The notes: a model not told the origin generated them from the letters alone. DNA of 15,702 nucleotides from an archaeon (GCA_024275415.1 JAJRZD010000060.1:1-15702), one strand, 5' to 3'. Shown: positions 1-15,220, counted from the stretch's first letter. Made by a program: numbers and translations.

Positions 1-89
1 CCCTGGTGGACATGCGCGTCCACGACGTCAACGTGGTAGCAGACCTCGACTAGCACGACCCGAACAACCCCTCTGCTCCACCGCCGACA
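1..89 (+). repeat. Conserved cassette anchor repeat, copy 1 (type A; cut by window edge; in-frame TAG at 51-53)
   Basis: Frame +3 reads LVDMRVHDVNVVADLD*HDPNNPSAPPPT. Positions 1-60 match 10981-11040 at 55/60 nt. Confidence 0.95.
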
Positions 90-122
90 GGGGACTCTTC
101 CGATGGGAAGGGCTTATTTGCA

Positions 123-881
123 GTGGAGAATGATGGAACTGCGATGCAAGCTCCAGAGCAAGACCCATTTGTTGATACAAATGCCGACAATGCGGCTTTA
201 TCAACTACCTCATGGTGGACTGGTTGGTGGCCCGTTCTTCATGTCAAGTCTACTCAAGTATTGTCGACAGGTTCCTACACAGTAGAGGTTTCTCTAGATT
301 TGCTTGGTGCATTCAAACTGGTGAGTTTTGATATCTGGGTTCCTCAACTTGATATCCTGAATGAGGATGGAATTGCGGTGGCTACCCAGTCTGCGAATGA
401 TGCCTTTTGGTCAGATGCTCTCCCACAAATCAAATTGCCCAAATATATCGCAGAAGGATGTTTACTTGCTTTAGAGGTGCTTGTAGTTATGGCAACCCCA
501 GCAGATCCTGTCATTTATGGTGTTATGATAGGTCTACTGAGTGCATGGCTTGTGTCATCATTGGTCTTCCTTTATGCCATTGGCGAGGCAGTGAAGATGG
601 GCTTGATGTCGCCGGGTGCGGCATTCAGTGAGTTGTTTGAAATGCTTTTATTCACCGTAGGAGCATCTTTAGTGGATGGATATTTCATGGCAAAGAGGTT
701 CTATGATGTGATATGGTCAAAGATTGCAGTTGGAACTCGCAAACTGGTCGTTTGGGGACTTGTCTTCAATATCTTGAACCTTGTGTCCAAGATTGCAATG
801 ACTGGGCTATTATTGAGCATGATGACATATTATCTGTATAATCACCTCGAACCATATACGCAGAATCCCGCATATACATGA
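123..881 (+). CDS. Cassette 1 variable C-terminal module (putative polymorphic toxin/recognition CT), hydrophobic
   Basis: In frame with repeat copy 1 but separated from it by TAG 51-53. Motifs NDGT, WWTGWWPVLH, LDLLG, followed by several hydrophobic helices. The start at 123 is probably not native. Function is inferred from architecture only. Confidence 0.75.
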   Translation: MENDGTAMQAPEQDPFVDTNADNAALSTTSWWTGWWPVLHVKSTQVLSTGSYTVEVSLDLLGAFKLVSFDIWVPQLDILNEDGIAVATQSANDAFWSDALPQIKLPKYIAEGCLLALEVLVVMATPADPVIYGVMIGLLSAWLVSSLVFLYAIGEAVKMGLMSPGAAFSELFEMLLFTVGASLVDGYFMAKRFYDVIWSKIAVGTRKLVVWGLVFNILNLVSKIAMTGLLLSMMTYYLYNHLEPYTQNPAYT

Positions 882-891
882 GGAATGGAAC

Positions 892-1431
892 ATGAATACG
901 TTAATATCATCGATAATATCGAGTATGTTGGCTGTTTTTTCAGTCAGTTCCCTTTATTTTGGATCAAATACGAGGGGACCAATGATATTGCAGCAGTTTG
1001 GAAAAACAGTTCTCAAGAGAACTTGGCGTCTTCTTGCACTAGCCGAACTAAACGTTGCTACAATCTCATGGTTCTGCTTCTTCTTCCTACTAGAACTGCC
1101 TTTCGATACATCAATAAATTCGGCGACGACAACGGCCCTAGATATTTTCCTCTTTTTGTCCCTTCTATCTGTACTTGTTATATTTGTTGAACGAGGTCAC
1201 ATTAAAGCCCCTTATCGAACTATTAGATCGGATGCTGATTTATTTGCTCTCGAGATGGAACGATCAGAGAACCAATTGAAAACTCTTGAGGATATCATTG
1301 TACGAATCGAAACTAACCCAAGAATCTCCAAAGAGAGTGCCAAGGACTTCCTATTGAACCTAAGCACTAGGAACGATGAAGTGGGTCTGAGATCTCGGAC
1401 ATATTTGGAATCTATGGAACGGAGTCAATGA
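892..1431 (+). CDS. Cassette 1 partner membrane protein (putative immunity), TM helices plus C-terminal helical domain
   Basis: ATG 892 with GAGGA at 880-884 overlapping the upstream stop. C-terminal LSTRNDEVG resembles LLNRTDEVG in the cassette 6 partner. Confidence 0.8.
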   Translation: MNTLISSIISSMLAVFSVSSLYFGSNTRGPMILQQFGKTVLKRTWRLLALAELNVATISWFCFFFLLELPFDTSINSATTTALDIFLFLSLLSVLVIFVERGHIKAPYRTIRSDADLFALEMERSENQLKTLEDIIVRIETNPRISKESAKDFLLNLSTRNDEVGLRSRTYLESMERSQ

Positions 1432-1453
1432 GATAAACCGAGTTCTTGGATTA

Positions 1454-2311
1454 TTGCAAGTCCTCGACACCATCGTCATTGGAGCTGGGAGGTTCTACTC
1501 CTCTGGGCTGAGCGAGATGCGCCTCCACGACATCAACGTCGTCACTGACCTCAACGAGCACGATCCCAACTCGTCTACTCCTGATGAGCCTGTTGAATAT
1601 GATGAGACTGGGATACCAACAGAAATTGAAAAGCGCAGAACAGATTTGATTCTTGAACCAATAGCTGTATCTGTTACAGCGGTCTGGCAAGTGGTTGATT
1701 TATTGCCTTGGCTAGTGTTATCTTTCACTACTGATAGTATTGATTTCATCATGAAAGTGGATCTTTTAGGTACCATTCAGCTTGATACATTGGCAATATC
1801 AATACCAATCATCGAAGCCATGTCACAAGCAGAGCTTGATGTGACTGCCGAAAAGGTGAATGACTACACAAGATTGGTATTCTCCTTTACTGTGCCGTTC
1901 ATAGTCGGACAGCTCGTGGTTCAGAGTTTGAGATTTCTCGAGAATATGAGTTGGGATCCTGTAAAGATGGGAATTGGAATGATGGCATGGCTTGCACTAT
2001 GGCTTAGCTACATCACCATCCTTGAGAATCTCGTTCGTGATGGAGAACTGCATCCGTGGGGTGTAGCCTATAACTTTCTGGGAATCGCAGTATCGCTTTT
2101 GCCGGGACTACGCAGCGGACTATCAACGGCAGGTAATCTTGTTAGGACTCTTCAGAAATTTTACTTGGGCAGCCTGCTCGAGTCTGTATATACAGGTGGG
2201 AGAATAAGAAGCGCTATATGGACTACTGCAATTGCACTCTTGAAGGTATTTGCATTTGCTACATGTTTGACCATGTATGTACAATTGATATCTCATGGAT
2301 TCAATGTGTAG
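1454..2311 (+). CDS. Cassette 2 ORF: anchor plus divergent variable module
   Basis: 285-aa ORF from TTG. Motifs YDET, a degenerate W..VDLLPWL in place of WTGWWP, and VDLLG, then a hydrophobic C-terminal half. Confidence 0.8.
   Translation: MQVLDTIVIGAGRFYSSGLSEMRLHDINVVTDLNEHDPNSSTPDEPVEYDETGIPTEIEKRRTDLILEPIAVSVTAVWQVVDLLPWLVLSFTTDSIDFIMKVDLLGTIQLDTLAISIPIIEAMSQAELDVTAEKVNDYTRLVFSFTVPFIVGQLVVQSLRFLENMSWDPVKMGIGMMAWLALWLSYITILENLVRDGELHPWGVAYNFLGIAVSLLPGLRSGLSTAGNLVRTLQKFYLGSLLESVYTGGRIRSAIWTTAIALLKVFAFATCLTMYVQLISHGFNV
1463..1604 (+). repeat. Cassette anchor repeat, copy 2 (type B)
   Basis: Encodes LDTIVIGAGRFYSSGLSEMRLHDINVVTDLNEHDPNSSTPDEPVEYD. 1577-1604 is identical to 13543-13570 (28 nt). 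Confidence 0.92.
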
Positions 2312-2317
2312 AGGTGA
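2311..2317 (+). promoter_or_regulatory. Shine-Dalgarno GAGGTGA for cassette 2 partner
   Basis: GAGGTGA overlaps the cassette 2 stop and ends 4 nt before ATG 2322. Confidence 0.7.
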
Positions 2318-2321
2318 CAAA

Positions 2322-2633
2322 ATGGATGCAATATTGCTGTTCGCGATGGTCATTGTGATATGTATAACTCTTTTAGTCACATCAACCTACTACGCACAAA
2401 ACTTGGATAGAATCCCGCAAGGACTGAAGCGGATGGGTGCCTACCTCTTTGCATCACAAAGAAGAGAGATAATAGTTTGGGAATCTCTTGGCATCTTGAT
2501 CCTTCTCGTTTTTGTGGTTCCCGCAGCATTCGTTTTTAGTGTTTCCGTGTTACCGTTGGTGGTTATTGCATGCATCTTTCTTCCTATAATGATATTTCTA
2601 ACCATTTCCCTGGGGGAGGAAAGACACTATTAA
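2322..2633 (+). CDS. Cassette 2 partner small membrane protein (putative immunity)
   Basis: The RBS favours ATG 2322 over 2295. About 103 aa with ~3 hydrophobic segments. Confidence 0.78.
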   Translation: MDAILLFAMVIVICITLLVTSTYYAQNLDRIPQGLKRMGAYLFASQRREIIVWESLGILILLVFVVPAAFVFSVSVLPLVVIACIFLPIMIFLTISLGEERHY

Positions 2634-2747
2634 CGGCACGATGGAGAACCTTCACAAGCTGCTCTCGAAACAATGGCTACTCAAGAATGAAATTCTATGA
2701 TAGGACTGTCTTCCACGGCTCCAGTTTGACCTTGTGCTCCATAGGGG

Positions 2748-2911
2748 GACAATGTCTTTCGGGTCATCAAGTACGTGGGGGTCCTGGGCTACCGCATGGA
2801 CAGCTACACCCTCGTGGACATGCGCGTCCACGACATCAACGTCGTCACAGACCTCGACCAGCACGACCCGAACTCAGCTACTCCGCCACCGACGCAGGAT
2901 CCGCCCGCTGG
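2748..2911 (+). repeat. Cassette anchor repeat, copy 3 (type A)
   Basis: Encodes DNVFRVIKYVGVLGYRMDSYTLVDMRVHDINVVTDLDQHDPNSATPPPTQDPPA. 2760-2842 matches 5966-6048 at 81/83 nt. Confidence 0.95.
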
Positions 2912-3731
2912 GGGAGAGCCAGAACCCGTGGTGTATGATGGTACAAAAGGAACTCCAAAACTAGGAAGCACGTTTATGGTGGAAGATTTCTTTGAATCAA
3001 ACTCCCAAGATGTTCAGGCTTATTGGACAGGATGGTGGCCTGTGTTGCACATTCGATTCTCATTCTATCCTATACCTGAAATCAATTTGATTTTGCATTT
3101 TACTATTGATATACTTGGTTCCTTCTCCATTGACCCAGAAACTGTTCTAAACATCCTGAATCCAGTGTTGATGACATATGGAGTCAAGAACGCTCAGAAT
3201 GTTGACAATGTGTATCAAATGGTCATGCGTGATATCGTAGATTATCTGTTTGGCATGGGAGGCGTTGCTTGGCGTGTTGCATGGGCTGCCGCCCTGACAC
3301 TGAAACTGACATCCTTAGTTATGGATACGGGCCCATGGGGTGCAGCCTTATTTGCGGCAAATACATTAATCTATGTGGGGGCCTTGATTGCTGGCGCCGC
3401 TCAGGTCGTTCAAGACGCCCTTGACGGGATTTTGCATCCTCTCGTTGCAGCATTCATTCTTATCCTGAATGCCTTAGCAATAGCTGTGGATGGCTTAAAC
3501 AAACTATATTCGTCTGCTAAAGGTGATACAGAACTCAATAGACTACAGGAAGCGGGAAACCTATTAACCGAGACCGAAATAGAGAACAAACATCGTGGAG
3601 TCTGTTTCAGATATGCTGCCGGCCTTGTGCTGATGATAACCGCTTGCGGTTTAGTGACTGCAGGTGTTGGACTCCTAGTGTGGTTCTTGGCACAAGGAAT
3701 CGATATAACATATGACACAGTAGCTACATAA
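2775..3731 (+). CDS. Cassette 3 ORF: anchor plus variable module
   Basis: 318-aa ORF from GTG, with in-frame TAG at 2742 upstream. Motifs YDGT, YWTGWWPVLH, IDILG, then Ala/Gly-rich hydrophobic helices and a C-terminal TM segment. Confidence 0.82.
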   Translation: MGVLGYRMDSYTLVDMRVHDINVVTDLDQHDPNSATPPPTQDPPAGGEPEPVVYDGTKGTPKLGSTFMVEDFFESNSQDVQAYWTGWWPVLHIRFSFYPIPEINLILHFTIDILGSFSIDPETVLNILNPVLMTYGVKNAQNVDNVYQMVMRDIVDYLFGMGGVAWRVAWAAALTLKLTSLVMDTGPWGAALFAANTLIYVGALIAGAAQVVQDALDGILHPLVAAFILILNALAIAVDGLNKLYSSAKGDTELNRLQEAGNLLTETEIENKHRGVCFRYAAGLVLMITACGLVTAGVGLLVWFLAQGIDITYDTVAT

Positions 3732-3745
3732 GGAGAAATACAAGA

Positions 3746-4120
3746 ATGCTAGAGGTTTTCATTCTCTTCTGTTTAGGATTACTTCTATTGCTCCCACCAC
3801 AGGTGTTCCTAATCTCTGGAGAATCTCAACTTATGTCCTTTTACAGATATGGAATTCCAATAGAAGATGAAAATGCAATCAGACTAAAGCGCATCGTTGA
3901 GAGGAAGGGTGGTTTGCTACTCCTCGCTCTGATTCTTTATCTGCCATATTTGGGGCTCCCGTTATTTGCATTAATAGTATTTTCTGATGCAGTTAATCTA
4001 TATTTGTTTCCTGCTTTATTGTTTGCAGGATTCTTAATATATGCCCAAAATACAGGAACGATTCTTGCATTCCTCATCAAACTAAAACAAGCGAAGTCAA
4101 CCAGTCAAGAACCAGCTTAG
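3746..4120 (+). CDS. Cassette 3 partner membrane protein (putative immunity)
   Basis: AGGAG at 3731-3735 overlaps the upstream stop. 124 aa, Leu-rich, ~3 TM segments. Confidence 0.8.
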   Translation: MLEVFILFCLGLLLLLPPQVFLISGESQLMSFYRYGIPIEDENAIRLKRIVERKGGLLLLALILYLPYLGLPLFALIVFSDAVNLYLFPALLFAGFLIYAQNTGTILAFLIKLKQAKSTSQEPA

Positions 4121-4230
4121 ATCCGTCCTTTCTCAGGTAGTTTCTATCCCTTTTAAGGACATAAATAGGGTGACCTCTGCCGGATGGCATTAGGCTTCTC
4201 CCCTGATGGCAATGTGAGCCCGTGCTGTAG

Positions 4231-4400
4231 GAGGTGAACAGCGCCTCAAGAATCATCGATACCATTGCAATCCGAGCTGGGCGCATTACTCATACGGCTT
4301 GAGCGAGATGTGCGTCCATGACATCAACGTCGTCACTGACCTCGACCAGCACGACCCGGACTCGTCAATCCCACCCCCAACGAAGGATCCACCTGCGGGA
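4231..4400 (+). repeat. Cassette anchor repeat, copy 4 (type B; 1-nt deletion at ~4285)
   Basis: EVNSASRIIDTIAIRAGR (frame +1) shifts to YSYGLSEMCVHDINVVTDLDQHDPDSSIPPPTKDPPA (frame +3), colinear with copy 2. Confidence 0.9.
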
Positions 4401-5226
4401 CAAACTCAACAAACCATCACGCATGATGGAACCCTGGATAGCAAAACTGAGGTCACGAAATATAAAAGCCAAGCAACTGTAGGTTCGAAGTTTGAAGAAA
4501 CGAGCAACATGATTTCAGTTTACTGGACTGGTTGGTGGCCATTGCTTCATTTTGAGATACCGCAGGAGACCATCCCAGATGTTGCTTTATCAATTTACAT
4601 CACATTGGATATACTAGGCAACATTCAAGTTCAATCCTTCAATATTCAATTCCTAGGCCTTGAAGATATGAATGCCTCTGAAGGCGATCAACTCGTATCT
4701 GCTATTCGACCCTCAAGCAATAGTATTGTCGGAACAGCATCGTCTTGGAGTTACCTCTTGACTATTTCAGGCATCTTCTACTCGACTGCTAAACTCATTT
4801 CGCTATACATGGTTCTTGGCAATACATGGCAGGAGCTAGCTTTTTGGGCTGCGATAGGTTTGTGTATTGCTACATTATTACCCGGACTATTTCTTCTTGC
4901 ACAAGCTGTAGCGGGTGTAATAGCAGACCCACTTCATTCAGCTCTTTACTTCTTTGGCGCTGCACTTGCTGCTCTATATACATTCGGTGCCAATAGCAAG
5001 GCAATAGATGATTATGGGCTCGAAGAGTGAAGGTGCATCCAGATTTCTTCGATTCTTCAAGGATGATTCTAGGAGTCCCTATCAAGCAGATCAACGGTGG
5101 CAGAATGCAGGATTGAAAGGTCGAGTGCATTTTGGGATAATGATGGTCCAACTCTCTGCGTTGGTAGCATTAACTATAATAGCTACAGGCTTCTTTCTAG
5201 GATGGGTTCGGTCATGGTTTGTGTAG
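4231..5226 (+). pseudogene. Cassette 4 module, frameshifted (ORFs 4299-5030 and 5008-5226)
   Basis: Motifs HDGT, YWTGWWPLLH, LDILG. FGANSKAID joined to MIMGSK...GLKGRVHFGIMMVQL aligns with uninterrupted cassette 9 IGANKAAVDKMI...GFEGRTHIGLMVAQL. The shift lies within 5006-5028. Confidence 0.8.
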
Positions 5227-5244
5227 TTGGAGAGAATAGTTTAG

Positions 5245-5703
5245 ATGAATGAAACGAGAAATACAATGGAGATGTTAGAATTACTGCAGTCAATCACTGA
5301 AAACGTTATCTTCCTATCTATTGCCTTTGGTGCAGCTGGACTGCTATGGTTGCTTGGAGCCCTTTACAGGTATCGAGGAACAGTCCTTCTAAGTCAACTG
5401 TCGCGAGATCAAATCGACCAAGCTAGGGGATTTGGGTCATGGTATGCAAAAAACATCACAGGAAATCCGAGGTCTGTTCTCTATTCAATGGCACATTACA
5501 CATTGATCCCTTTGACTTTCTTGATAGCTGGGTTCATATTTGCGCCATTCGAATTCGATTTGGTGCTCGAGCGCATCTTGCCCGTCTTTCCATTCTTTGT
5601 GATTCTGGGGCTAGTATGTGGCATAGATTTCCGGTATCGATGGTGGGGGACGGGTAAACCAGAACCTATGGAAAGTGCTACCCACGAAAACCATGAAGGC
5701 TAA
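5245..5703 (+). CDS. Cassette 4 partner membrane protein (WYxxxI family, putative immunity)
   Basis: 152 aa with TM helices. GFGSWYAKNITGNPRSVLYSMAH is similar to the partners of cassettes 5 and 9. Confidence 0.82.
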   Translation: MNETRNTMEMLELLQSITENVIFLSIAFGAAGLLWLLGALYRYRGTVLLSQLSRDQIDQARGFGSWYAKNITGNPRSVLYSMAHYTLIPLTFLIAGFIFAPFEFDLVLERILPVFPFFVILGLVCGIDFRYRWWGTGKPEPMESATHENHEG

Positions 5704-5773
5704 CATTTGTCACCTGCTTGGAGAGAATTACTTGAATATGGTTCTTTAGCAATCGCCTACAGTAGCCTCTGGT

Positions 5774-5950
5774 ATGAAGCACTTTTATGTCTATCAAGAC
5801 ACCCAGAACGGAGGCTCGTACTCGGAACTCATGCTACCTGTACAAATCCTTCACCAAGACGGGGAAGTTGTGGTGGGGCCCGTACCAGGGCGGTGACGGT
5901 GCCGTCTTCGCAAGCATCGACGGGTAGGGTCGTCCCAACCCATCGGTGAG
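5774..5950 (+). pseudogene. Degraded remnant of the upstream constant (trunk) region of the parent protein
   Basis: High-GC3 reading MKHFYVYQDTQNGGSYSELM / YLYKSFTKTGKLWWGPYQGGDGAVFASID / VGSSQPIGE runs into cassette 5 if frameshifts at ~5834 and ~5921 are allowed. Confidence 0.5.
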
Positions 5951-6112
5951 GTGGAGAACGCCTCCCGGGTCATCACGTACGTGGGGGTCCTGGGCTACCG
6001 CATGGACAGCTACAACCTCGTGGACATGCGCGTCCACGACATCAACGTGGTAGCAGACCTGAACGAGCACGATCCCAATAACCCCTCAACCCCGCCGCCA
6101 ACCCATGACCCG
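5945..6112 (+). repeat. Cassette anchor repeat, copy 5 (type A)
   Basis: Encodes GEVENASRVITYVGVLGYRMDSYNLVDMRVHDINVVADLNEHDPNNPSTPPPTHDP. Confidence 0.95.
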
Positions 6113-6892
6113 GACGAATCATTGGTCCATGATGGAACTACTGTTGGAACGAGCGATGAGGCTCTTTGTGTTCTAGGGGGATATATTGATGACCTATTTG
6201 CTTCGATTGCAGGTGAGATTTCTGTTTGGTGGACAGGATGGTGGCCGACTTTACATATCCAAATCTCGAAAGTGATAACAAGTGCTATCACGATAGACCT
6301 ACACATTACAGTTGATATTCTAGGCAACCTAGAATTCGATACTATTGACTATAAAATAAGTGGATATGAATCGCTGAGTGAAGATGATTCTGAAGCAGCT
6401 GCCCACGCTGTTGTTGAATCTTCAAGATGGGCATTGGATACCGCCATTGTATTATCCGCTGCTTCCATGACTCTTGCATGGTTGGCAGTTGATATCCTAG
6501 CAGATATAGCCACACCATTGACTGAAAACATCTTCTGGGTGACACTTGGTATTGCAATGGTTTCAACTTTCACAGCTTGGGGTCTAATTATCTGGAAAGC
6601 ACAACAACTAGGTGTCCCAAAGTGGGTTCGAGCGTTAGGATTTCTTGCGTCTGCATTAACACTTCTGTGGTCGGGGAGTCGGAACTATAATACAGCTGCT
6701 GCGTTAGTAGATGAGTGTCACTTCACAAGAAAGGTTACTGACTACTTTGGAGATCTTTGGTCTTGGGATTTCATAAGGAATAATTATAACAATGTGCGAG
6801 TTCGGACTCATGTTGGTTATGCTTTTGCGAGGATTGTCTGTGCTGTGTCCGCATTTGTTATATTTGCAGGATTATGGATGGGATGGATATAG
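5951..6892 (+). CDS. Cassette 5 ORF: anchor plus variable module
   Basis: 313-aa ORF from GTG. Motifs HDGT, WWTGWWPTLH, VDILG, hydrophobic helices, and RVRTHVG before a terminal TM segment. Confidence 0.82.
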   Translation: MENASRVITYVGVLGYRMDSYNLVDMRVHDINVVADLNEHDPNNPSTPPPTHDPDESLVHDGTTVGTSDEALCVLGGYIDDLFASIAGEISVWWTGWWPTLHIQISKVITSAITIDLHITVDILGNLEFDTIDYKISGYESLSEDDSEAAAHAVVESSRWALDTAIVLSAASMTLAWLAVDILADIATPLTENIFWVTLGIAMVSTFTAWGLIIWKAQQLGVPKWVRALGFLASALTLLWSGSRNYNTAAALVDECHFTRKVTDYFGDLWSWDFIRNNYNNVRVRTHVGYAFARIVCAVSAFVIFAGLWMGWI

Positions 6893-6936
6893 ATGCAGTA
6901 TTGCTGCTACATTTTCTTCTTAGATTATCAATTATC

Positions 6937-6943
6937 AGGAGGT
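6937..6943 (+). promoter_or_regulatory. Shine-Dalgarno AGGAGGT for cassette 5 partner
   Basis: AGGAGGT ends 8 nt before ATG 6952. Confidence 0.7.
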
Positions 6944-6951
6944 ATGATGAG

Positions 6952-7341
6952 ATGTACGGAGTTCTTATAACGGCAATCACTGGGTGCTTCATCGTATTCT
7001 CTATAACAGGGTTCTACCTTTATAGAAAAGGTTGGGAGTCTGCACAAGATTCGATTCTCTCAAATGGGAACATTCCATTGAATGCTAGAGGCTTGTGGTA
7101 CATCAGGAACATCTCCACAGTTCCTCGTGCAATAGCCTATCATGTCATTGAGGGGTCATTTCCAATTCTTGGATTTCTCATCATTTGCTATTTAGCAATC
7201 TACGAGTATTTCTATATCATTTTACTGACAACAGGATGGCTAGTGATTGTAAGCATATCTAGAGGGATAATTCAAGGAAATATCCATTATAAGCGAAATA
7301 AGGAGGTTCTTGATAAATTACGTCAATGTCAGTCTTGTTAG
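6952..7341 (+). CDS. Cassette 5 partner membrane protein (WYxxxI family, putative immunity)
   Basis: Start moved from 6874 to 6952 on RBS evidence. Contains RGLWYIRNISTVPRAIAYH and ~3 TM segments. Confidence 0.8.
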   Translation: MYGVLITAITGCFIVFSITGFYLYRKGWESAQDSILSNGNIPLNARGLWYIRNISTVPRAIAYHVIEGSFPILGFLIICYLAIYEYFYIILLTTGWLVIVSISRGIIQGNIHYKRNKEVLDKLRQCQSC

Positions 7342-7364
7342 TATCGGCGTAGTAGCAACTTGAC

Positions 7365-7917
7365 ATGAGTTTACTTGATTCATTTTGAGTCACGCTCTTG
7401 ACTTTCTTCGTGTGGGATTTGCTTGGACCTCTATGATTGATGAGTCTTAGCCCAGTCAAATTCTTCAGCACAGTGTCGACAGAAATTATGGTATCAGCAA
7501 AGTTTTGGACTGCGTCCATATGCAAGGGATCTGTTCACTGCTTCACTAATAGCTTATACGCTTTCTTCATTGGCGGTGATATACTTTATCGCACAAGCAT
7601 ATCTTGACGGCTCATTGTACTATCTGGATGCATTCATTGGACTGGTGGTAATGATATGAGGAATTCTCTTCGCTGGCAATGCCATCTCGACGCAATCCAT
7701 TTATGGAACAGTAATGATCTTCTTTTGGCTCCCCATTCTATCTGTTGGAATCCTTTGGCCAGAATAGCTGACTTCGTTTGTATCAGGCCTCCAATTCTGG
7801 ATTCTACTTTCGTTAACACTGGCTTTTCTAAGCGTCATGTGCAGCAGCCCCGATTCAGCTGGATGTTTCGAAGAGGCATATGACCTACTGATAAAGGATG
7901 ACGAGGAGGTTCAGTGA
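7365..7917 (+). pseudogene. Degraded polytopic membrane-protein gene (extra partner-like)
   Basis: Frame +3 reads MSLLDSF*VTLLTFFVWDLLGPL*LMSL. Frame +1 then reads ...LWYQQSFGLRPYARDLFTASLIAY...VVMI*GILFAG...ILWPE*LTSF...KDDEEVQ*. Hydrophobic coding character continues across the stops at 7386, 7434, 7657 and 7765. Confidence 0.6.
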
Positions 7918-8009
7918 GTCCGGTGCAGCGACCGTCACCCTCCGTAGCATCGACTCGAACTTTGACAGGGACGCTCTGGTGATACTCATGACCAAGCGGG
8001 GATGAAGCC

Positions 8010-8863
8010 ATGTTCACAGACCTCGACCAGCAGGATTCCAATCCACCTGCCCTACCTCCTCCAACACAAGATGACGATGTAGTAATTGAAGCAGATGGCA
8101 CTACTCAAGGTGCTCCACCTGCGAATAATCCATATTTGGCTCAGTTAAACCAAGTTATTGTCGATCTAACATCTACAATTGTGATGTATTGGGAAGGATG
8201 GTGGCCTGTCCTCCACATCTTGATAGATATGGCACTACCCGACTCTAGTTCCTGTGCTTTACATCTCACCATAGATCTACTAGGATTCAAAAACATGAAA
8301 TCCTTATCGCTAGATATCCTAGGGTTGAATGATATGCCTGAGAGCGATGGGGATGCGATAGTTAGTGATATCGACTCAGAATTTGCTGACTTGGTAGGTA
8401 TTATCGCTGCGGCCGTTGGAGTAGCTATGCAAGTTGCCTATTTCGCTCTAAAAGCTTTAGTGCAAATACTTCGGAGAAGGAATGGGTCTTCTGGGCAGCC
8501 TTGGTTGGCTATACTTTATTATATGTAAGCTATGTGGGATTGAGCTGGTACTATGCTCGTCTAACAGCAGCTAACGCGTTGTGTCAGGCGGTAATTTTCT
8601 TCGGAATGGCATTGATGTGTATCCTTAGTTTTGGCTGGGAGAATCATCTTACAACTCAATTCATGAAAGGAAAGGCTGCAGGCAGGATATGGAATTACTT
8701 TGATGACTTCTATAAGAACAACAAGTTAGCGAACATCAACAAATCCGGTTTTGAGGGTAGATCTCATGCAGGATTGCTGGTGATGAATGTGATTTGTTTT
8801 GCGTCCATAGTAGCCATTACATGTGGTATTGCATTCCTGGGGGGTGATAAGAACGATACATAG
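8010..8863 (+). pseudogene. Cassette 6 module, frameshifted (ORFs 8010-8528 and 8501-8863)
   Basis: Motifs ADGT, YWEGWWPVLH, IDLLG. Frame +2 from ~8462 reads ANTSEKEWVFWAAL (compare cassette 4 GNTWQELAFWAAI) through GFEGRSHAGLL. Implies a net 1-nt loss near 8450-8465. Confidence 0.78.
8014..8070 (+). repeat. Cassette anchor repeat, copy 6 (5'-truncated)
   Basis: TCACAGACCTCGACCAGCA (8014-8032) is identical to copy 3. Encodes TDLDQQDSNPPALPPPTQD. Confidence 0.85.
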
Positions 8864-8913
8864 TAATATGATTGCAGAAAACAGGACAATTGGAGGAATT
8901 TGAATTGAGTGAA

Positions 8914-9480
8914 ATGGAACTAATGTACCTATTCTGGTTGTTTTGTGCGACTCTGATAGTGTTCTTGCCAATTATCTACTATGTGATGGCTGGAACTGCA
9001 ATGAGAGGAAACTTGAAAGAAGAGGCTGTACCGAAATCTACTGATTTCGGCAGGAAGTATGGCGGCTTTCTTGAAAAACAAACTTGTTCAAGACAAAAAC
9101 TGACCAATATTCTTGCTTTCACAAGCCCTCTTACTGTCTATTGGGTTCTTTCCTTCCTTCTAGTTCCCCAGGCTTTCATAGAGCTTCTCAGCTACTCATG
9201 GTGGTTTTGGCCTGTTCTTGCCCTCTTTGGATATATAAGTATCACATCATCAGAAATTGAGTATTACGAAGAGCTTGGTGAATCAACATATCAACAAATC
9301 CTACAACAAGAAAATCCCGTTGAAGAAGCACTCGTACTTGTAAGGCATTACGAAAAGAAACCTATACACCAGAACTATGCGAGGGCGAAGGAACATCTTC
9401 TGAATAGGACTGATGAAGTTGGTGATGTCTTCCGCGAGGCCTATGCAAGATTGGAAGTTGAATCCATTGATTCGGACTAG
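8914..9480 (+). CDS. Cassette 6 partner: membrane protein with C-terminal helical domain
   Basis: GGAGGA at 8892-8897 suggests a start at TTG 8905 or ATG 8914 (ORF open from 8872). About 3 TM segments, then LLNRTDEVGDVFREAY. Confidence 0.8.
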   Translation: MELMYLFWLFCATLIVFLPIIYYVMAGTAMRGNLKEEAVPKSTDFGRKYGGFLEKQTCSRQKLTNILAFTSPLTVYWVLSFLLVPQAFIELLSYSWWFWPVLALFGYISITSSEIEYYEELGESTYQQILQQENPVEEALVLVRHYEKKPIHQNYARAKEHLLNRTDEVGDVFREAYARLEVESIDSD

Positions 9481-9551
9481 AAACGAAAGGTTGACGCAGG
9501 CATCTTCTTAAGCGGCTAAACCAGGCAATTCGGGCGAAGTAGTGCATATGC

Positions 9552-9650
9552 CGTGGACATGCGCGTCCACGACGTCAACGTGGTCGCCGATTTGAACGAG
9601 CAAAATCCAAACTCGTCCACCCCACCGCCAACGCAGGACCCGCCCGCTGG
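9552..9650 (+). repeat. Cassette anchor repeat, copy 7
   Basis: Encodes VDMRVHDVNVVADLNEQNPNSSTPPPTQDPPA. Confidence 0.93.
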
Positions 9651-10420
9651 AACAGATTATACGATGACTGGACCTGACGGTACAACAGAAGGTCTGGGTG
9701 AATACATCAATGAGGAGATGGATGAGAATATGCCAAGAATCATATCTCCTGAAGAGGTGAATGGTGAGGTTACTCAGTGGTGGACAGGACCCTGGCCTCG
9801 TCTTCATTCCAAAATCGATTATATGACAGAAGATGGCTATAGGGCAAAATATCACATCAGTAATGATTTGCTTGGAAATGTGCAGGTGGAGGAGGAGATG
9901 CAGCTAACGACCGAGTTGGCTGACGATCCAATTAATGACCCCGGCTTTTCAGCGTCTATTGCCGACGTTTACTTCAATACGCTAGTGACATTGTGGAGTG
10001 TTGAAATGGTTCTAATCATAACTGACATATTCACTGTCTGGGCTTGCGTTGCGTGGGAAAAGAATCCCTCATGGTGGCCACTGGCAGCAATTACCGGAGC
10101 TGCTTGGACAGCGGCTTTCAGCATCTACCTCGGATTGATGATTAATGAGATCCTATCCGAAACAGACAACCCGTTTGTACGTTTTTGGGCAATTGCACTA
10201 CTAGGCATCTCAATGGTCTTTGGATGGTCTATGACAGATTTCCTAAAAGACCTCGGAGTGTACCTCATCCAAAAGGGGATTCATTCATTCATTCACTGAG
10301 TTCTTTCTTGAACGAAATGCGCCGTCTTTAAGTTGGATGCTCTGGAAATTACTATGCACATTGATAGTGTTCATCATGGCGGGTCTAGTACTGACGATAA
10401 CTCTTCTGGAGATACTGTAG
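9553..10420 (+). pseudogene. Cassette 7 module, C-terminus out of frame at (ATTC)4 (ORF 9553-10299 plus 10295-10420)
   Basis: Motifs PDGT, WWTGPWPRLH, NDLLG. Removing one ATTC unit extends the ORF through TEFFLERNAPSLSWMLWKLLCTLIVFIMAGLVLTITLLEIL to TAG 10418-10420. Confidence 0.78.
10279..10294 (+). repeat. Tetranucleotide microsatellite (ATTC)4
   Basis: ATTCATTCATTCATTC read directly from the sequence, immediately before the premature TGA at 10297-10299. Confidence 0.9.
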
Positions 10421-10468
10421 AAACACCGATGTAAGAGAATAAATAGTTGAAAGAGGGACAAGTGCAAG

Positions 10469-10795
10469 ATGCAAACCATAGATCTCGATCCAGTGTCGAT
10501 GTACTTGATTGTATGTGGGATTCTAGTGTTCATATTGCCAATGCTTCTTGCGGGTTCTATTCTGCATTGGGTTCGAAAAGACTCGGTAGCACAGGAGATG
10601 ACCCGCAAGGCGGAACGTCTCATCAGCATGACCACGGGTAGCGTTGGAGTCCTGTTCCTGTTAGGATCAATCCCTATATTCAGCAACAAAGTAACAGGAT
10701 TTCATCTGATATCTGGCTTTGCTATATTGGCAATATCGACATGGACTGGAACATGGTATGCCATGAAACGAGTGCGTGACGCAAACGGAAGATGA
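10469..10795 (+). CDS. Cassette 7 partner small membrane protein (putative immunity)
   Basis: 108 aa with ~3 TM segments. Follows the restored cassette 7 stop by 48 nt. Confidence 0.78.
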   Translation: MQTIDLDPVSMYLIVCGILVFILPMLLAGSILHWVRKDSVAQEMTRKAERLISMTTGSVGVLFLLGSIPIFSNKVTGFHLISGFAILAISTWTGTWYAMKRVRDANGR

Positions 10796-10934
10796 TTATG
10801 AATCACCATTTTCACAAGGTTCAGGTCCAGCCCCTGACTGGTCGCCGCTGATAATGATATCGCCTGGCCCGGTGTCTGGGAGCAGCTATTTGTCAATTCA
10901 TGCTCTGGTAAGATGGAGAGTGATCTGATGCAAC

Positions 10935-11831
10935 TTGCATGGGAAACTGGGAATCCTTGGCTATCGGTACAGTAGCTACACCCTCGTGGACATGCGCGTC
11001 CACGACGTCAACGTGGTAGCAGACCTCAACGGGCACGATCCTGACTCTTCCACTCTGCCACCGACGCAGGATCCACCTGCTGGTGAAGAGCAAGCTGTGC
11101 AGGATTACGATGGTACACAAAATGGAGGTACGTCCACGGGATACCACATGCAGGCTGCAGATACTAGTCTAAGCGATGGTATGAATGATCTTCAATTATA
11201 TTGGACAGGTTGGTGGCCTCTATTACATGTCGTGTATAGTATTCCAATATCTGGTGATGGAGTTCAGTTGACTCTTAGCTTTCACATTGCCAAGAATCTT
11301 TTAGGGATAAGTGAATACACTGCTTTGCAGATTAGTGGGGATGAGTCATTTTATACTGATGCAGTTCCAGTCTTGTTGGCGTTGGCTTTTGAAAACATAT
11401 TTGCGCTAGTAATGATAAATGCAGTTCTTGTCGCATCCAATATTCTTGAGGCAGTTGTGAATTCAGCAAGTTACATTCCGGGAGCACTCATTGGCGCAAT
11501 TTCATTAGTTGTGGCAACCGTTACAGTATCATATCTTGCACCTGTCCATTTCATTCAAGGAGAAATCGAAGCAGGAAGAGCCAGTAACATAGTAGCGTTT
11601 GGTTTCCTATTGGAAGTAGCCTGGGCATGGCTAAATTTGGGAATGGATATGAAAGGTATCTATCAAACAGGCGGCTTATTCTTGCATAGCAAATTAATGA
11701 TAAGCAACTATTTGCCAGCATGTAGGCTAAAAGACTTCCTGAAAATCACGAAACTTGCCTACGTATTGGTTCTAAGCATCGGAGTTGCATTGCTTGCCAC
11801 AGCCATCTGGTATCTTCTGAACTCCTTTTAG
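10935..11831 (+). CDS. Cassette 8 ORF: anchor plus variable module
   Basis: 298-aa ORF from TTG. Motifs YDGT, YWTGWWPLLH, KNLLG, hydrophobic helices and a terminal TM segment. Confidence 0.82.
   Translation: MHGKLGILGYRYSSYTLVDMRVHDVNVVADLNGHDPDSSTLPPTQDPPAGEEQAVQDYDGTQNGGTSTGYHMQAADTSLSDGMNDLQLYWTGWWPLLHVVYSIPISGDGVQLTLSFHIAKNLLGISEYTALQISGDESFYTDAVPVLLALAFENIFALVMINAVLVASNILEAVVNSASYIPGALIGAISLVVATVTVSYLAPVHFIQGEIEAGRASNIVAFGFLLEVAWAWLNLGMDMKGIYQTGGLFLHSKLMISNYLPACRLKDFLKITKLAYVLVLSIGVALLATAIWYLLNSF
10947..11083 (+). repeat. Cassette anchor repeat, copy 8 (type A variant)
   Basis: Encodes LGILGYRYSSYTLVDMRVHDVNVVADLNGHDPDSSTLPPTQDPPA. Confidence 0.95.
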
Positions 11832-11903
11832 GGGATATTCTCGGAAACGAACCTCGTACACTAGGGAATAATCAATATAAGTGAAGTGAGATGAGAGCCT
11901 ACC

Positions 11904-12476
11904 ATGCAGGTATTCGATATCTTTGGCAGTGATCTAATAGAAGGCATTGCATTCGCAACGCTACTATCTGTTTCAGTAATTGTCAATCACCTCTCCAAAA
12001 GAATTGTAAAAGAGTCAATCGAATACGAGAGGACTGGCATTGAGAACATATCTTCTATGATATCCCGATTTGCCAACAAGCTAACAGTAGTGGGTTCTAA
12101 TGATTATCTCGCATCGAGACGAACTTTTCTGCGGCTTCATTTAGCAATCACTGTCCTTTGTCTAGGATTAATCCTGCTATTTACGTTCACTCCACTTGCG
12201 ATTGTGACATTCATTTTCTACCTATGTGTTTTCTCGGAAATGCTATACGACTTCCGCAACCGAGGGTACTTGGAAGACACAGTCGAATATCTTGTACAGA
12301 GAGTAGATGAATCGGCTAATGGTGTGCGTGAACTTGAAAAGATTCGCATGGAGATGCAGGATTTGATAGCCTACAACAAAGATGCCTTTGCTGAATTCCT
12401 AGAAATCCTAGCTCATAGAAGTGATGCTGTCAGCGAAAAAGCAAGAGAGATATCAAGATGTGTTAGAGAATCATGA
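11904..12476 (+). CDS. Cassette 8 partner 1: membrane protein with C-terminal helical domain
   Basis: 190 aa with ~3 TM segments. C-terminal LAHRSDAVSEKAREI resembles the partners of cassettes 1 and 6. Confidence 0.8.
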   Translation: MQVFDIFGSDLIEGIAFATLLSVSVIVNHLSKRIVKESIEYERTGIENISSMISRFANKLTVVGSNDYLASRRTFLRLHLAITVLCLGLILLFTFTPLAIVTFIFYLCVFSEMLYDFRNRGYLEDTVEYLVQRVDESANGVRELEKIRMEMQDLIAYNKDAFAEFLEILAHRSDAVSEKAREISRCVRES

Positions 12477-12492
12477 GTGTTGGGAGGGTCTC

Positions 12493-12939
12493 ATGGTGAG
12501 TGATTTACTTACATTTTCTCTTCTCGCTGTGCTATTACTCCTGTACTTTATCACTCTCCGTGTATTCTGTTTCCTCATATTGGTATTGTTATATCGATTT
12601 ACAGGACTTGGCATGTCTGCTGACTCGATCAAGTACTTCAAAGAACACCAGCTCCGTATGACATTGATATACTTCCTCGTGCCTGTGTTGGCAACTATCG
12701 GCATTGGAGTTTTCTCCTATATGATGCTCCTTATACCCTTAGCCAATGGAGACTTATGGCCCTTCTATTGGGCGAGCGGTGGAGTGCTTATCACTGATGC
12801 AGCACGTCAGTTTCTTCTATCTGTTATTTCACTTATCGGGATAGTTATGAGCTCGGTGTTCAGTCTAATGCGGTTGGGTCTTCCAAATCCATTGAAGTTG
12901 GGTCAATACTGGTGTGGATACAAACCTATGAGATTGTAG
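12493..12939 (+). CDS. Extra membrane protein (orphan partner-like)
   Basis: GGAGGGT at 12483-12489 favours ATG 12493 over 12421. About 3-4 TM segments. Confidence 0.75.
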   Translation: MVSDLLTFSLLAVLLLLYFITLRVFCFLILVLLYRFTGLGMSADSIKYFKEHQLRMTLIYFLVPVLATIGIGVFSYMMLLIPLANGDLWPFYWASGGVLITDAARQFLLSVISLIGIVMSSVFSLMRLGLPNPLKLGQYWCGYKPMRL

Positions 12940-12958
12940 TTGGCACCTATGGAGACGG

Positions 12959-13513
12959 ATGAATATGCTTTCCCTCTTTGCATTTATCGTATTAGCCATT
13001 ACATTCGGAATCTCATTACAGCTCGGTATTCTATGGACGGGGGATATTGGCGAAACCGAAATGGGATTCCTTCGACGAATTCTTTTTGGATCAAAAAAAG
13101 CATCCATTTTGACTTCGAACACCATCCTCATTGGGGGCTTTCTTGCGGTGCTCATTTTTGACTCACAGACAAATCATCTTGAGGTTATCATTTCCATCGT
13201 TCTCCTTGAATTAGCATTCCTCCTCATCGGGTCACATGTATTCCTGAATTGGCATATTGGATCTTATTGTGTCGCAGGGAGGAACAAGATGCAAATCCGT
13301 CTTCTTCGTGCTCAGACTGATCCTGCTCTCAAACAAATAGTCGCCAGACATACCATGTTGTCAGTGATAAATGAGATTCGCCAAGGGAATCGAGCCTCAG
13401 CGCAAGTGCTAAGGGATGCCATCACTTGTGGAGATTCTGAAAGTGAACTCCTTTTAAGACAAGGACTGGAGATTGATGAAGACCTTGTTAGAAGCATCCT
13501 AGACGAGTCCTAG
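12959..13513 (+). CDS. Extra membrane protein with soluble C-terminal tail (orphan partner-like)
   Basis: GGAG at 12951-12954. 184 aa with ~3 TM segments followed by a charged helical tail. Confidence 0.77.
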   Translation: MNMLSLFAFIVLAITFGISLQLGILWTGDIGETEMGFLRRILFGSKKASILTSNTILIGGFLAVLIFDSQTNHLEVIISIVLLELAFLLIGSHVFLNWHIGSYCVAGRNKMQIRLLRAQTDPALKQIVARHTMLSVINEIRQGNRASAQVLRDAITCGDSESELLLRQGLEIDEDLVRSILDES

Positions 13514-13521
13514 TCATCCAT

Positions 13522-13570
13522 CAGCACGACCCGGACTCGTCCACTCCTGATGAGCCTGTTGAATATGATG
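13522..13570 (+). repeat. Cassette anchor repeat, copy 9 (strongly 5'-truncated)
   Basis: 13522-13541 is identical to 4347-4366, and 13543-13570 is identical to 1577-1604. Encodes QHDPDSSTPDEPVEYD. Confidence 0.9.
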
Positions 13571-13608
13571 GAACTCCCGGGGGATTAGAATACAGACCGC
13601 AAACCAGA

Positions 13609-14361
13609 ATGAAGGACACTGTAAATCAACTTTTCAATGACATGGCTGGATATATCTCAATTTATTGGACAGGTTGGTGGCCCGAATTGCATTTCGTGAT
13701 TAATCATGAGATAGCCACCGATATCACAATTTTCTCGGACTTGCCAATCGATGTTCTTAGTGTCATTCATTTGAGGAGTTTCAATCTTGAGTTTCTGGAT
13801 ATCAAGAACAAAACCGATGATGCGATCTCTATCCTCATTGTAGATATTCAATCAGTCACTAATAATACAATCTCCGGATCCACTGCTGACTATTATCTGG
13901 CAGGAGCAGAAATATCTTGGGTTTCTGCTGAGGTGATTGCTATGTGGGCGCCACCAACCACTGCCTCAGAAATTGCATTTTGGGATGCACTGGCAATATT
14001 TACCGCTCTAGCAATCGCAGGTCTTGTGTTCTTAGCACAGGATGTGGCCAACTGCAACGCCGGCCCATATCTTTCTGCGATGATATTCTTTGCAATGGCA
14101 CTTGTGTCCATGAAAGAGATTGGAGCGAATAAAGCAGCAGTTGATAAGATGATCACAGAAAGTCCTAAGACAGTAAGAGACTTTAACCTATTCAAAGACA
14201 AACGCTTTCGAACCTCATGGGCAAAGAAAGGGTTTGAAGGTCGGACGCATATCGGTCTTATGGTCGCTCAATTGTTGGTTCTTCTTACCATCATCACGAT
14301 TGCATGGGGTTTCATGGCTGAATGGGCGTTTGATGTGTTCCGATCAACGAGTCCATCCTGA
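13609..14361 (+). CDS. Cassette 9 variable module (homology starts at 13522, same frame)
   Basis: YDGT lies just upstream of the ATG. Motifs YWTGWWPELH, IDVLS, EIAFWDAL, GFEGRTHIGL and a terminal TM segment. Confidence 0.8.
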   Translation: MKDTVNQLFNDMAGYISIYWTGWWPELHFVINHEIATDITIFSDLPIDVLSVIHLRSFNLEFLDIKNKTDDAISILIVDIQSVTNNTISGSTADYYLAGAEISWVSAEVIAMWAPPTTASEIAFWDALAIFTALAIAGLVFLAQDVANCNAGPYLSAMIFFAMALVSMKEIGANKAAVDKMITESPKTVRDFNLFKDKRFRTSWAKKGFEGRTHIGLMVAQLLVLLTIITIAWGFMAEWAFDVFRSTSPS

Positions 14362-14403
14362 GAGAGAGAATCGTAGTAACGATAAGAAAGGAGAAGTGAA
14401 CTC

Positions 14404-14758
14404 ATGGTGATGACGGGGTTGATGACGATGACATTTCTCATAGCCGGGGCTATTTGGCTTGTATTGCTAAAAGCCATCATGGACGGTAAGAAGATTCAAG
14501 ACCGGGGATTGGATGAAAAACCTCTTGGTTTCGAATAGAACCGAAACGTGGTACGCGAAGCATATAACTAATGTGAAGCGTTCCATTCTGTTCTCCGTTT
14601 TTCATTTTGCCACAATCCCTTTCGTATTCCTGTCTTGTGTCCTGTTGTTCGAACCAGACTATTTCCAGCAATTGAGTCCTTCGATATTGCCATTACTCCT
14701 CTTTTTTGTGTTAGTAGGAATAGGTTCAGGTTTTGACAGGCGATATACAAAACGGTAA
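14404..14758 (+). pseudogene. Cassette 9 partner (WYxxxI family), frameshifted
   Basis: AAGGAG at 14388-14393. ATG 14404 reads MVMTGLMTMTFLIAGAIWLVLLKAIMDGKKIQDRGLDEKPLGFE*. Deleting 14536-14545 gives GFETWYAKHIT, colinear with GFGSWYAKNIT of the cassette 4 partner. Confidence 0.75.
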
Positions 14759-14968
14759 GTGTTTCCTACTACATCGTTCACGGCATCGATTCAGGGATGG
14801 ATGGTGCAGGCAAGGATAGTCTTTCTCATGGTTCCGTCCGGGGTTCCCCCAGAATACCAACTTGAACTGTCCATAGAGATATTGAAGAATTTTGCTGCTG
14901 CTTTTTCTTTGGGTCCTTTTGTCTATATAGTTCTATCACGAAGGAGATCAAAGATGAATATGGATTGA
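14759..14968 (+). CDS. Possible small membrane protein or gene fragment
   Basis: 69 aa from GTG abutting the previous stop, with hydrophobic stretches. No recognisable motif. Confidence 0.35.
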   Translation: MFPTTSFTASIQGWMVQARIVFLMVPSGVPPEYQLELSIEILKNFAAAFSLGPFVYIVLSRRRSKMNMD

Positions 14969-15010
14969 AAACTATTCAATGTAATAATAGGGTTGCATAG
15001 GATTCGGTAG

Positions 15011-15220
15011 ATGGCTGTTGCTGAACGAGTCGAGTACATCGAAAGTCAGCAGCCGGTTGTCTCGCATTTCAATATGACTGAGAATCCACTTATGCGCTGG
15101 TGGATCATAGTTGCTTCGATGATGGTGCTGGTTCTCGGATGGCTTGGTTGTACAATTCTGGTTCTCTATCCAAACTATTTGGCTGCTCAACAGGTACTGG
15201 CAATGGGAACGACTCCATGA
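15011..15220 (+). CDS. Small single-TM membrane protein
   Basis: 69 aa from ATG with one strongly hydrophobic segment (WWIIVASMMVLVLGWLGCTILVL). Confidence 0.55.
   Translation: MAVAERVEYIESQQPVVSHFNMTENPLMRWWIIVASMMVLVLGWLGCTILVLYPNYLAAQQVLAMGTTP

Follow-up and report, generated by a model that had tools for sequence, protein, structure and literature searches.

Introduction

Orphan arrays of C-terminal (CT) and immunity modules occur in the CdiA, Rhs and MafB systems. Membrane-depolarising effectors, such as the pore-forming colicins A, E1 and Ia with Cai and Cei, and TspA with TsaI, are accompanied by small polytopic immunity proteins, and the colicin pore domain is a ten-helix globular bundle with a buried hydrophobic hairpin. 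IdsD and IdsE of Proteus mirabilis form a self-identity pair that uses type VI secretion and is not known to have orphan arrays. Our description of CdiA-CT/CdiI, Rhs and MafB as polymorphic toxin systems follows the summary of Zhang et al. (2012) as cited in PMC6393860. Among archaea, the VARTIG locus of the Thermococcales encodes a large secreted protein with an Ig domain that is hypervariable through recombination, along with diverse secreted downstream proteins; its authors leave open whether it serves conflict or self/non-self recognition and report no VARTIG-like modules outside the Thermococcales (PMC8416519). Here we analyse the window, an entire contig of 15,702 nucleotides (nt; GCA_024275415.1 JAJRZD010000060.1:1-15702, our contig C39) from an archaeal metagenome-assembled genome (MAG; 3.53 Mb in 127 contigs, 92.9% complete). 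It carries a tandem array of cassettes, each pairing a remnant of a long parent gene and its variable hydrophobic C-terminal module (the tail) with a small membrane-protein gene downstream (the partner). We read this array, tentatively, as a reservoir of orphan cassettes of a polymorphic surface-protein system specific to Thorarchaeota, in which the tail would be a membrane-acting effector and the partner its immunity protein.

An initial annotation of the sequence had likened the layout to the CdiA, Rhs and MafB orphan arrays, and this likeness holds in several respects: a long conserved trunk switches abruptly to a variable C-terminus past a conserved motif, a cognate small gene that co-varies with this C-terminus lies directly downstream, tandem 5'-truncated tail and partner cassettes retain a stretch of homology to the trunk, and the distribution is patchy with variable copy number. 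We are confident, short of certainty, that the genomic logic is that of a polymorphic effector/immunity system with orphan reservoirs. Unlike those systems, the Thorarchaeota trunk has no FHA, YD, VENN or DPxGL element, the host is an archaeon without an outer membrane in which no secretion machine was identified (contractile injection systems were not searched for), and the tails are variants of one homologous membrane fold rather than unrelated enzymes and look like resident polytopic anchors. The cassettes resemble colicin-type pairs in having a helical C-terminal module of about 170-200 amino acids (aa), an adjacent protein of 100-200 aa with three or four transmembrane (TM) helices, and extra copies of the small gene; the tail is, however, far more hydrophobic than the colicin pore domain, with four TM-like helices against one buried hairpin. 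No colicin model of Pfam matched and no colicin chain was among the fold matches listed for the tail, a distant relation still being possible. As in IdsD/IdsE, two adjacent membrane proteins have variable regions in or near TM segments that must match, but the Thorarchaeota system has orphan arrays and no homology to IdsD/IdsE was detected. VARTIG is the closest archaeal analogue, being likewise lineage-restricted with a hypervariable C-terminal part and variable downstream genes, yet it is a different system: the Thorarchaeota locus varies a TM bundle, pairs it with a single small membrane protein and has long orphan arrays.

Asgard archaea are the closest prokaryotic relatives of eukaryotes, and competition and recognition among them are almost unstudied. 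The locus has every genomic hallmark of conflict or recognition, with hypervariable tails, co-varying partners, about 25 cassettes in one genome and a patchy occurrence within one family, and its parts, a trunk with a caspase-like domain and two lectin domains and a four-helix membrane tail, are undescribed. It offers a testable entry into cell-cell interactions of Asgard archaea, and its effector/immunity pairs may represent a new class that acts on membranes.

A tandem array of tail and partner cassettes

Nine co-oriented units had been proposed between positions 12 and 13522, and all nine are present there on the + strand (Table 1). The anchor, a conserved coding stretch at the 5' end of the units, was located through its core, a 26-nt pattern that with at most three mismatches occurs seven times on the + strand (12, 1517, 2820, 4308, 6026, 9559 and 10992), where 200 shuffles gave an expectation of 0 matches. 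The proposal that every unit has a conserved anchor is accordingly right for seven units and only partly so for units 6 (8014) and 9 (13508/13522), which keep just the distal part; this distal anchor/linker segment forms a repeat family (D3) of nine copies in the window. The motif coding for WTGWWP is found in eight copies against 0.14 expected, and unit 2 is without it. The variable hydrophobic module was recovered in each unit as a tail of 165-205 aa with three to five predicted TM helices, and the adjacent small membrane gene as an open reading frame (ORF) with two to five TM helices that follows each tail on the same strand at a distance of -18 to +170 nt. Beyond the nine units first proposed, a tenth, degraded one lies at 7437-7908.

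Several cassettes carry lesions, namely an in-frame TAG in unit 1, frameshifts in the tails of units 4 and 6 and an apparent frameshift in the partner of unit 9, which is probably shifted near 14500, a TM-like stretch lying upstream in another frame. We considered whether the array as a whole could be an assembly artefact and rejected this, as the tails differ strongly between units and the layout recurs in independent MAGs. Scans of the window for transfer RNA genes and Rfam families found nothing, and the window thus shows no integration landmarks.

The long parent gene and its trunk

The initial annotation had predicted a long gene that bears the anchor, and one coding for an N-terminal signal/anchor helix exists in this genome on another contig (C119) and in related genomes. 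On C119 it is represented by two overlapping ORFs, L001:10544-12625 (693 aa) and 12595-13959 (454 aa), which are offset by a 1-nt shift in a GGG run. At its N-terminus the 454-aa ORF has about 165 additional residues, with the anchor at their end, and the preceding 693-aa gene closes with a homologous domain. Thorarchaeota MAGs contain intact orthologues of 1057-1123 aa whose alignment spans the ORF junction with 63% identity, and intact long proteins in other Thorarchaeota MAGs are about 1060-1320 aa long. The split at L001:12560-12600 affects the sole long parent gene of this genome and may reflect an error in sequencing, true pseudogenisation or a site prone to slippage.

From its N-terminus, the parent protein consists of a hydrophobic helix, a caspase/CHAT-like domain, a Pro-rich linker, a beta-sandwich and two ConA-like lectin domains, followed in the C-terminal part by an acidic Pro-rich linker, a beta-meander with WxGWWP...LH...DLLG and, last, four TM-like helices that form a hypervariable bundle. 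The anchor is formed by the last beta-strands of the second ConA-like lectin domain. An AlphaFold model of the 693-aa part, with a predicted local distance difference test (pLDDT) score of 72.5, comprises the N-terminal helix, an alpha/beta domain (residues 51-310), the Pro-rich linker, the beta-sandwich and a ConA-like jelly roll (440-654). This first ConA-like domain matched 5ly8, the CBM2 of the phage J-1 Dit protein (Z 18.6, root-mean-square deviation (rmsd) 3.2, 206 aa); further matches, with Z values of 11-14, were to GH16 enzymes, calreticulin and L-type lectins. The two copies share 30-34% identity, and the second, which ends in the anchor, is predicted to have the same ConA-like beta-jelly-roll fold.

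In a VIA search, the alpha/beta domain matched the SAVED-CHAT protease 8tl0 (Z 11.5, rmsd 3.8, 160 aa). Strands 109-113 and 144-148 directly precede SHGG and ACSS, and all 16 homologues compared share the SHG and AC motifs without change; SHG and AC, each after a beta-strand, are what we take to be the signature of clan CD cysteine peptidases. The model thus points to a caspase/CHAT-like fold and a predicted peptidase in the N-terminal domain of the trunk. The curated CHAT, Peptidase_C14, C11, C13 and C25 models of Pfam and NCBIfam gave no match to this domain, a search of the PDB by sequence with the 693-aa part returned nothing, and in an Atlas feature search of the trunk CHAT came no higher than rank 49, with a score of 0.87, and counts as no more than a lead. 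The claim that anchor and WTGWWP module match no recognised family therefore stands at the level of families, no Pfam, NCBIfam or PADLOC model having matched trunk, tails or partners, and for the trunk it falls at the level of folds: as modelled, the trunk combines known folds (caspase/CHAT-like and ConA-like lectin) in what is a new family.

Pfam searches of the long protein and of 17 homologues gave no hit to the marks of CdiA, Rhs and MafB proteins (FHA, YD repeats, VENN, DPxGL, and the Pfam models), and the demarcation region of the long protein reads MR(V/I)HD...HDP...DGT...WxGWWP. Three long trunks from other MAGs (P0011, P0102 and P0143) reach 1300-2100 aa through inserted DUF2341 and Glce_b_sandwich domains, and the trunk itself is therefore modular.

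Tails and partners co-vary and move as one unit

To relate tails and partners we compared 53 tail-partner pairs, in which the gap between the two genes was mostly -40 to +40 nt. The similarity matrices of tails and partners were strongly correlated (Mantel r 0.82, reached by 0 of 5000 permutations), and similar partners were found in 22 of the 39 tail-similar pairs but in none of the 1339 others. Four tail types end a full-length gene in one genome yet belong to an orphan cassette in another, as exemplified by the types shared between a long gene in L008 and an orphan on C102, and between a long gene in L023 and an orphan on C110. Since anchor and linker are less similar (44%) than the tail (48-56%) in pairs of the same type, tails have been re-joined to different trunks. 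These comparisons show that a tail and its partner are passed on, and also exchanged, together.

The border of this unit is sharp, with pairs of full-length genes 60-75% identical up to the anchor and 12-30% beyond it, and the consensus of 18 long homologues conserved until MRIHD...DGT and variable after. The ratio of nonsynonymous to synonymous substitution rates was 0.06-0.21 for orphan tails and 0.17-0.32 for partners. Orphan tails are maintained as proteins by purifying selection and are not simply decaying, even though individual cassettes of the window still carry lesions.

Partners also occur on their own. The last of the three small membrane genes after unit 8 (12959-13513) is a solitary partner, because the partners with which it clusters go with a tail type not present in the window. 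Elsewhere, at L026:6200-10030 and L024:680-3940, runs of five to seven small membrane genes from different partner clusters stand without tails upstream of a single orphan, and look like collections of solitary partner genes.

Because of such solitary partner arrays and the orphan reservoir, we favour an effector/immunity role. Under the mechanism that we propose, homologous recombination at the anchor or linker would move a silent tail and partner cassette onto the expressed gene, and the incoming cassette would displace the previous tail and partner downstream. The tail would act on membranes, most likely as a pore or leak former, and the co-varying small membrane protein would bind and neutralise it inside the bilayer, and extra partner genes would protect the cell from tails that its neighbours produce. 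The lectin domains would bind glycans on other cells, and the caspase-like domain may process the protein at a conserved Asp-Gly in the linker.

Tail architecture and the case for an identity module

The unit 3 tail was modelled from a 53-row alignment (pLDDT 74.7) as a disordered acidic linker, a four-strand beta-meander (WTGWWP...LH...DILG), two polar helices and four long TM-like helices. All tails have this beta-meander and four TM-like helices, and many of the types are linked at E <= 1e-3. Searches with the model gave no match in the PDB with Foldseek at E <= 0.001, a best Z of 12.9 to designed helical repeats in the wide VIA search, which is within the range for any helical bundle, two rows only among the AlphaFold DB clusters at E <= 0.001, both of them uncharacterised proteins and maybe family members, and only matches under a TM-score of 0.31 in the ESM Atlas. 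Complex prediction for the unit 3 tail and its partner scored 0.35 against 0.00 for the best control, which supports the pairing weakly; of the 80 solved complexes 58 reached the mark used, as did 2 of 110 mismatched pairs, but only 7 of the 80 reached it with a score of 0.60 or less, a range that held both mismatches that passed. The runs agreed in at least 52% of contacts, with a partner pLDDT of at least 59.

A number of these observations weigh against tails and partners being effectors and their immunity proteins. Linkage and common descent are also expected to make adjacent genes co-vary. The tails share one architecture and weak homology, unlike systems that shuffle unrelated toxin folds, and C-terminal modules from many unrelated toxin folds, by which polymorphic toxin systems are recognised, were not found among them. 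No toxin, immunity or defence family of Pfam, NCBIfam or PADLOC matched any part, and the tail model had no match among solved or predicted folds beyond generic helical bundles. No delivery route to another cell is evident, contractile injection systems lying outside our searches. The controls of the complex prediction are probably soluble proteins and thus leave hydrophobic packing uncontrolled, and several of the lesions in the window (three frameshifts and one stop) could be assembly errors. Finally, across the family, Lys and Arg make up 12.4 per 100 residues in the loop between the last two helices versus 2.5-4.8 in the acidic N-terminal flank, and this charge pattern fits a protein inserted N-out/C-out in the membrane of its own producer, with the trunk continuing outside the cell. 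Judged from sequence, the charge pattern would speak for an IdsD/IdsE-like pair and for a delivered toxin to about the same degree.

That all tails have a single homologous membrane fold, and that the topology is a resident one, are reasons to favour an identity module, the alternative that we rank second, ahead of stand-alone paralogues and of a self-directed regulated pore. The long lectin-bearing protein would then reside in the producer's membrane by means of its variable four-helix tail, paired with its cognate small protein; match or mismatch with a neighbour would govern adhesion, membrane exchange or fusion, in the manner of IdsD/IdsE or of polymorphic surface receptors, and the cassettes would let lineages change identity. 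The positive-inside pattern with its N-out/C-out topology points to such a resident protein, the tails differ in sequence only, the trunk has lectin domains, tails and partners co-vary tightly and no toxin fold was found. Solitary partner arrays and orphan reservoirs, however, are typical of immunity collections, and a variable part that lies mostly inside the membrane would be unreadable between cells without transfer. To our knowledge, no solitary-partner or orphan arrays of this kind accompany identity pairs, and we consider an identity role unlikely, if a serious contender to the effector/immunity pair. Allorecognition among Asgard archaea, with an exchangeable membrane identity module that would distinguish kin from non-kin at contact, membrane exchange or fusion and draw on dozens of silent alleles, seems to us slightly less probable still.

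Units are 5'-truncated copies of the parent gene

About 25 copies of the family were found by searching the genome, on C39, C110, C102, C119, C53 and C96 and mostly at contig ends. Each unit of the window corresponds to the 3' end of the parent gene, cut on its 5' side at varying points of the last lectin domain (Table 1). In a survey of the family, which yielded 203 representative clusters from 1.84 billion proteins, about 15 of the 203 clusters exceeded 850 aa, and most were 240-400 aa long and started at varied points of the anchor or linker. The fraction of identical codons in the anchor was 0.66 versus 0.34 expected, and within the VDMRVHDIN core it was close to 1.0. The anchor is homogenised at its synonymous sites, and near-identical DNA is kept.

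These data bear on whether the short units are ordinary paralogues, that is, stand-alone two-gene membrane modules, each expressed from a start of its own, of which the long genes are fusion variants, with no cassette switching. Most units are ORFs with possible start codons, short forms outnumber long ones by about 10:1 among the representative clusters, and the short forms are under purifying selection. Yet their 5' ends fall at many points of a beta-sandwich domain that is unable to fold from its last strands alone, out-of-frame remnants of the domain lie upstream of ORFs, and the anchor of unit 1 has a stop while its tail is intact. The short forms also have no signal peptide, though the predicted topology needs an N-terminal piece of 100-150 aa outside the cell. 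The homogenised synonymous sites of the anchor, and the occurrence of the same tail type on a full-length gene in one genome and as an orphan in another, likewise count against stand-alone modules, and we regard this explanation as improbable.

Units 2 and 4 (1505-1530 and 4296-4320) carry an anchor subtype with GLSEM in place of LVDM. No long gene of the GLSEM subtype is assembled in this genome, and the remnant in unit 2 is about equally close to long genes of other genomes and to the genome's own. This suggests that the subtype comes from a second parent gene or was imported from another lineage.

A conserved Asp-Gly in the linker

Three features are kept in at least 90% of the 53 sequences, namely the Pro of HDP, the Asp-Gly of the linker and W..xWP. 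In an otherwise variable and disordered linker, the Asp-Gly(-Thr) (2930-2941 and equivalents) is conserved as strongly as the WxGWWP motif, and it is a candidate cleavage or processing site for the caspase-like domain of the trunk.

The same Asp-Gly just before the tail, the caspase/CHAT-like domain with its intact His/Cys dyad and the topology of a resident membrane protein would also suit a latent pore in the producer's own membrane, shut by the partner until a virus or a damage signal is sensed by the surface lectin or the caspase-like part and then released, the outcome being abortive infection or programmed death, with viral inhibitors driving diversity, but the protease domain follows an N-in signal/anchor helix and is hence predicted outside the cell, PADLOC gave no matches, and we know of no self-directed abortive or death system with orphan reservoirs or solitary partner genes, so that we hold this explanation to be very improbable.

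Distribution and layout in other genomes

More than 12 other Thorarchaeota-labelled MAGs and one labelled Hermodarchaeota share a common order, in which the long gene is followed by a small TM gene and then by zero to four orphans with their partners. The family was found in 29 of 400 sampled Asgard genomes, all of them in one GTDB family, where 28 of 85 genomes from 13 genera are carriers as against 0 of 315 in other families. A genome of this GTDB family (G313) is the Thorarchaeota-labelled source of L007, which places the genome of the window in the same family. In the literature searched on polymorphic toxins, self/non-self recognition and hypervariability in Thorarchaeota and other Asgard archaea we found no description of the system.

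Feature coordinates and neighbouring genes

Table 1. Features of the array and adjacent small ORFs in the 15,702-nt window, with the residues of the parent's last lectin domain that each unit keeps.
Feature	Position (nt)	Strand	Parent residues kept	Description
Unit 1	3..881	+		anchor cut by contig start; in-frame TAG 51-53; WTGWWP 216-232; tail ORF 123-881
Partner of unit 1	892..1431	+		179 aa; 3 TM helices and C-terminal helical region
Unit 2	1424..2311	+	144-185	divergent GLSEM anchor subtype; no WTGWWP; tail with 5 predicted TM helices
Partner of unit 2	2295..2633	+		112 aa; 2 TM helices; 17-nt overlap with end of tail ORF (2295-2311)
Unit 3	2694..3731	+	131-185	lectin-domain remnant from 2694; intact ORF 2775-3731; modelled
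Partner of unit 3	3746..4120	+		124 aa; 3 TM helices
Unit 4	4290..5226	+		GLSEM anchor subtype; frameshift near 5020-5030 splits tail (4299-5030 and 5008-5226); tail related to that of unit 9
Partner of unit 4	5245..5703	+		152 aa; related to partners of units 9 and 5
Unit 5	5762..6892	+	80-184, partly out of frame	longest lectin-domain remnant, out of frame upstream of 5951; intact ORF 5951-6892
Partner of unit 5	6874..7341	+		155 aa; 19-nt overlap with end of tail ORF (6874-6892)
Tenth unit, decayed	7437..7908	+		tail remnant 7437-7713 (aa 27-122 of 168, frameshifted) joined to remnant of its own cognate partner 7711-7908 (aa 72-137 of 142, internal stop); same type as C102 orphan and full-length gene in L008
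Unit 6	8010..8863	+	linker only	distal anchor only; tail frameshift near 8470-8500
Partner of unit 6	8872..9480	+		202 aa; largest partner cluster (13 members); 57% identical to C110 L002:11536-12108
Unit 7	9535..10299	+	167-185	ORF 9553-10299 begins at anchor; tail related to orphans in L006 and L023
Partner of unit 7	10469..10795	+		108 aa; 2 TM helices; 170 nt past tail
Unit 8	10935..11831	+	154-185	intact ORF
Three small membrane genes after unit 8	11904..13513	+		11904-12476, 12421-12939 and 12959-13513
Unit 9	13516..14361	+	linker only	anchor lost, linker alone kept; tail ORF 13609-14361
Partner of unit 9	14404..14758	+		called ORF 14513-14758 (81 aa) without first TM helix
Two further small ORFs	14759..15220	+		69 aa each; one TM helix each

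We looked for a degraded partner between the tail of unit 7 and its distant partner and found none. Two sub-threshold similarities of the partner of unit 2 (2295-2633), both far below the cut-offs, were to TIGR01218, the 'tandem five-TM protein' family (E 0.0026), and DUF1430 (E 0.0096). The sole gene of the window outside the array is an ORF on the - strand (15331-15702) that is open at the contig end and has a weak match, below the cut-off, to the PD-(D/E)XK nuclease model PF07788 (E 0.0049).

On C119, 4.3 kb upstream of the parent gene and separated from it by housekeeping genes, L001:3-6218 encodes a surface protein of more than 2071 aa that has a TM helix at its C-terminus and contains Big_1, Big_3_5, Filamin and macroglobulin MG2/MG4 domains; it is not kept beside the system in other MAGs.

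The final 141 nt of the window (15562-15702) are the first 141 nt of C53, on which the family unit is convergent, on the opposite strand. C119 ends in nearly the same sequence with which C102 begins, and C110 and C102 both terminate in the same lectin-domain remnant. It is probable that the roughly 25 units of this genome come from one or two large loci fragmented by repeats.

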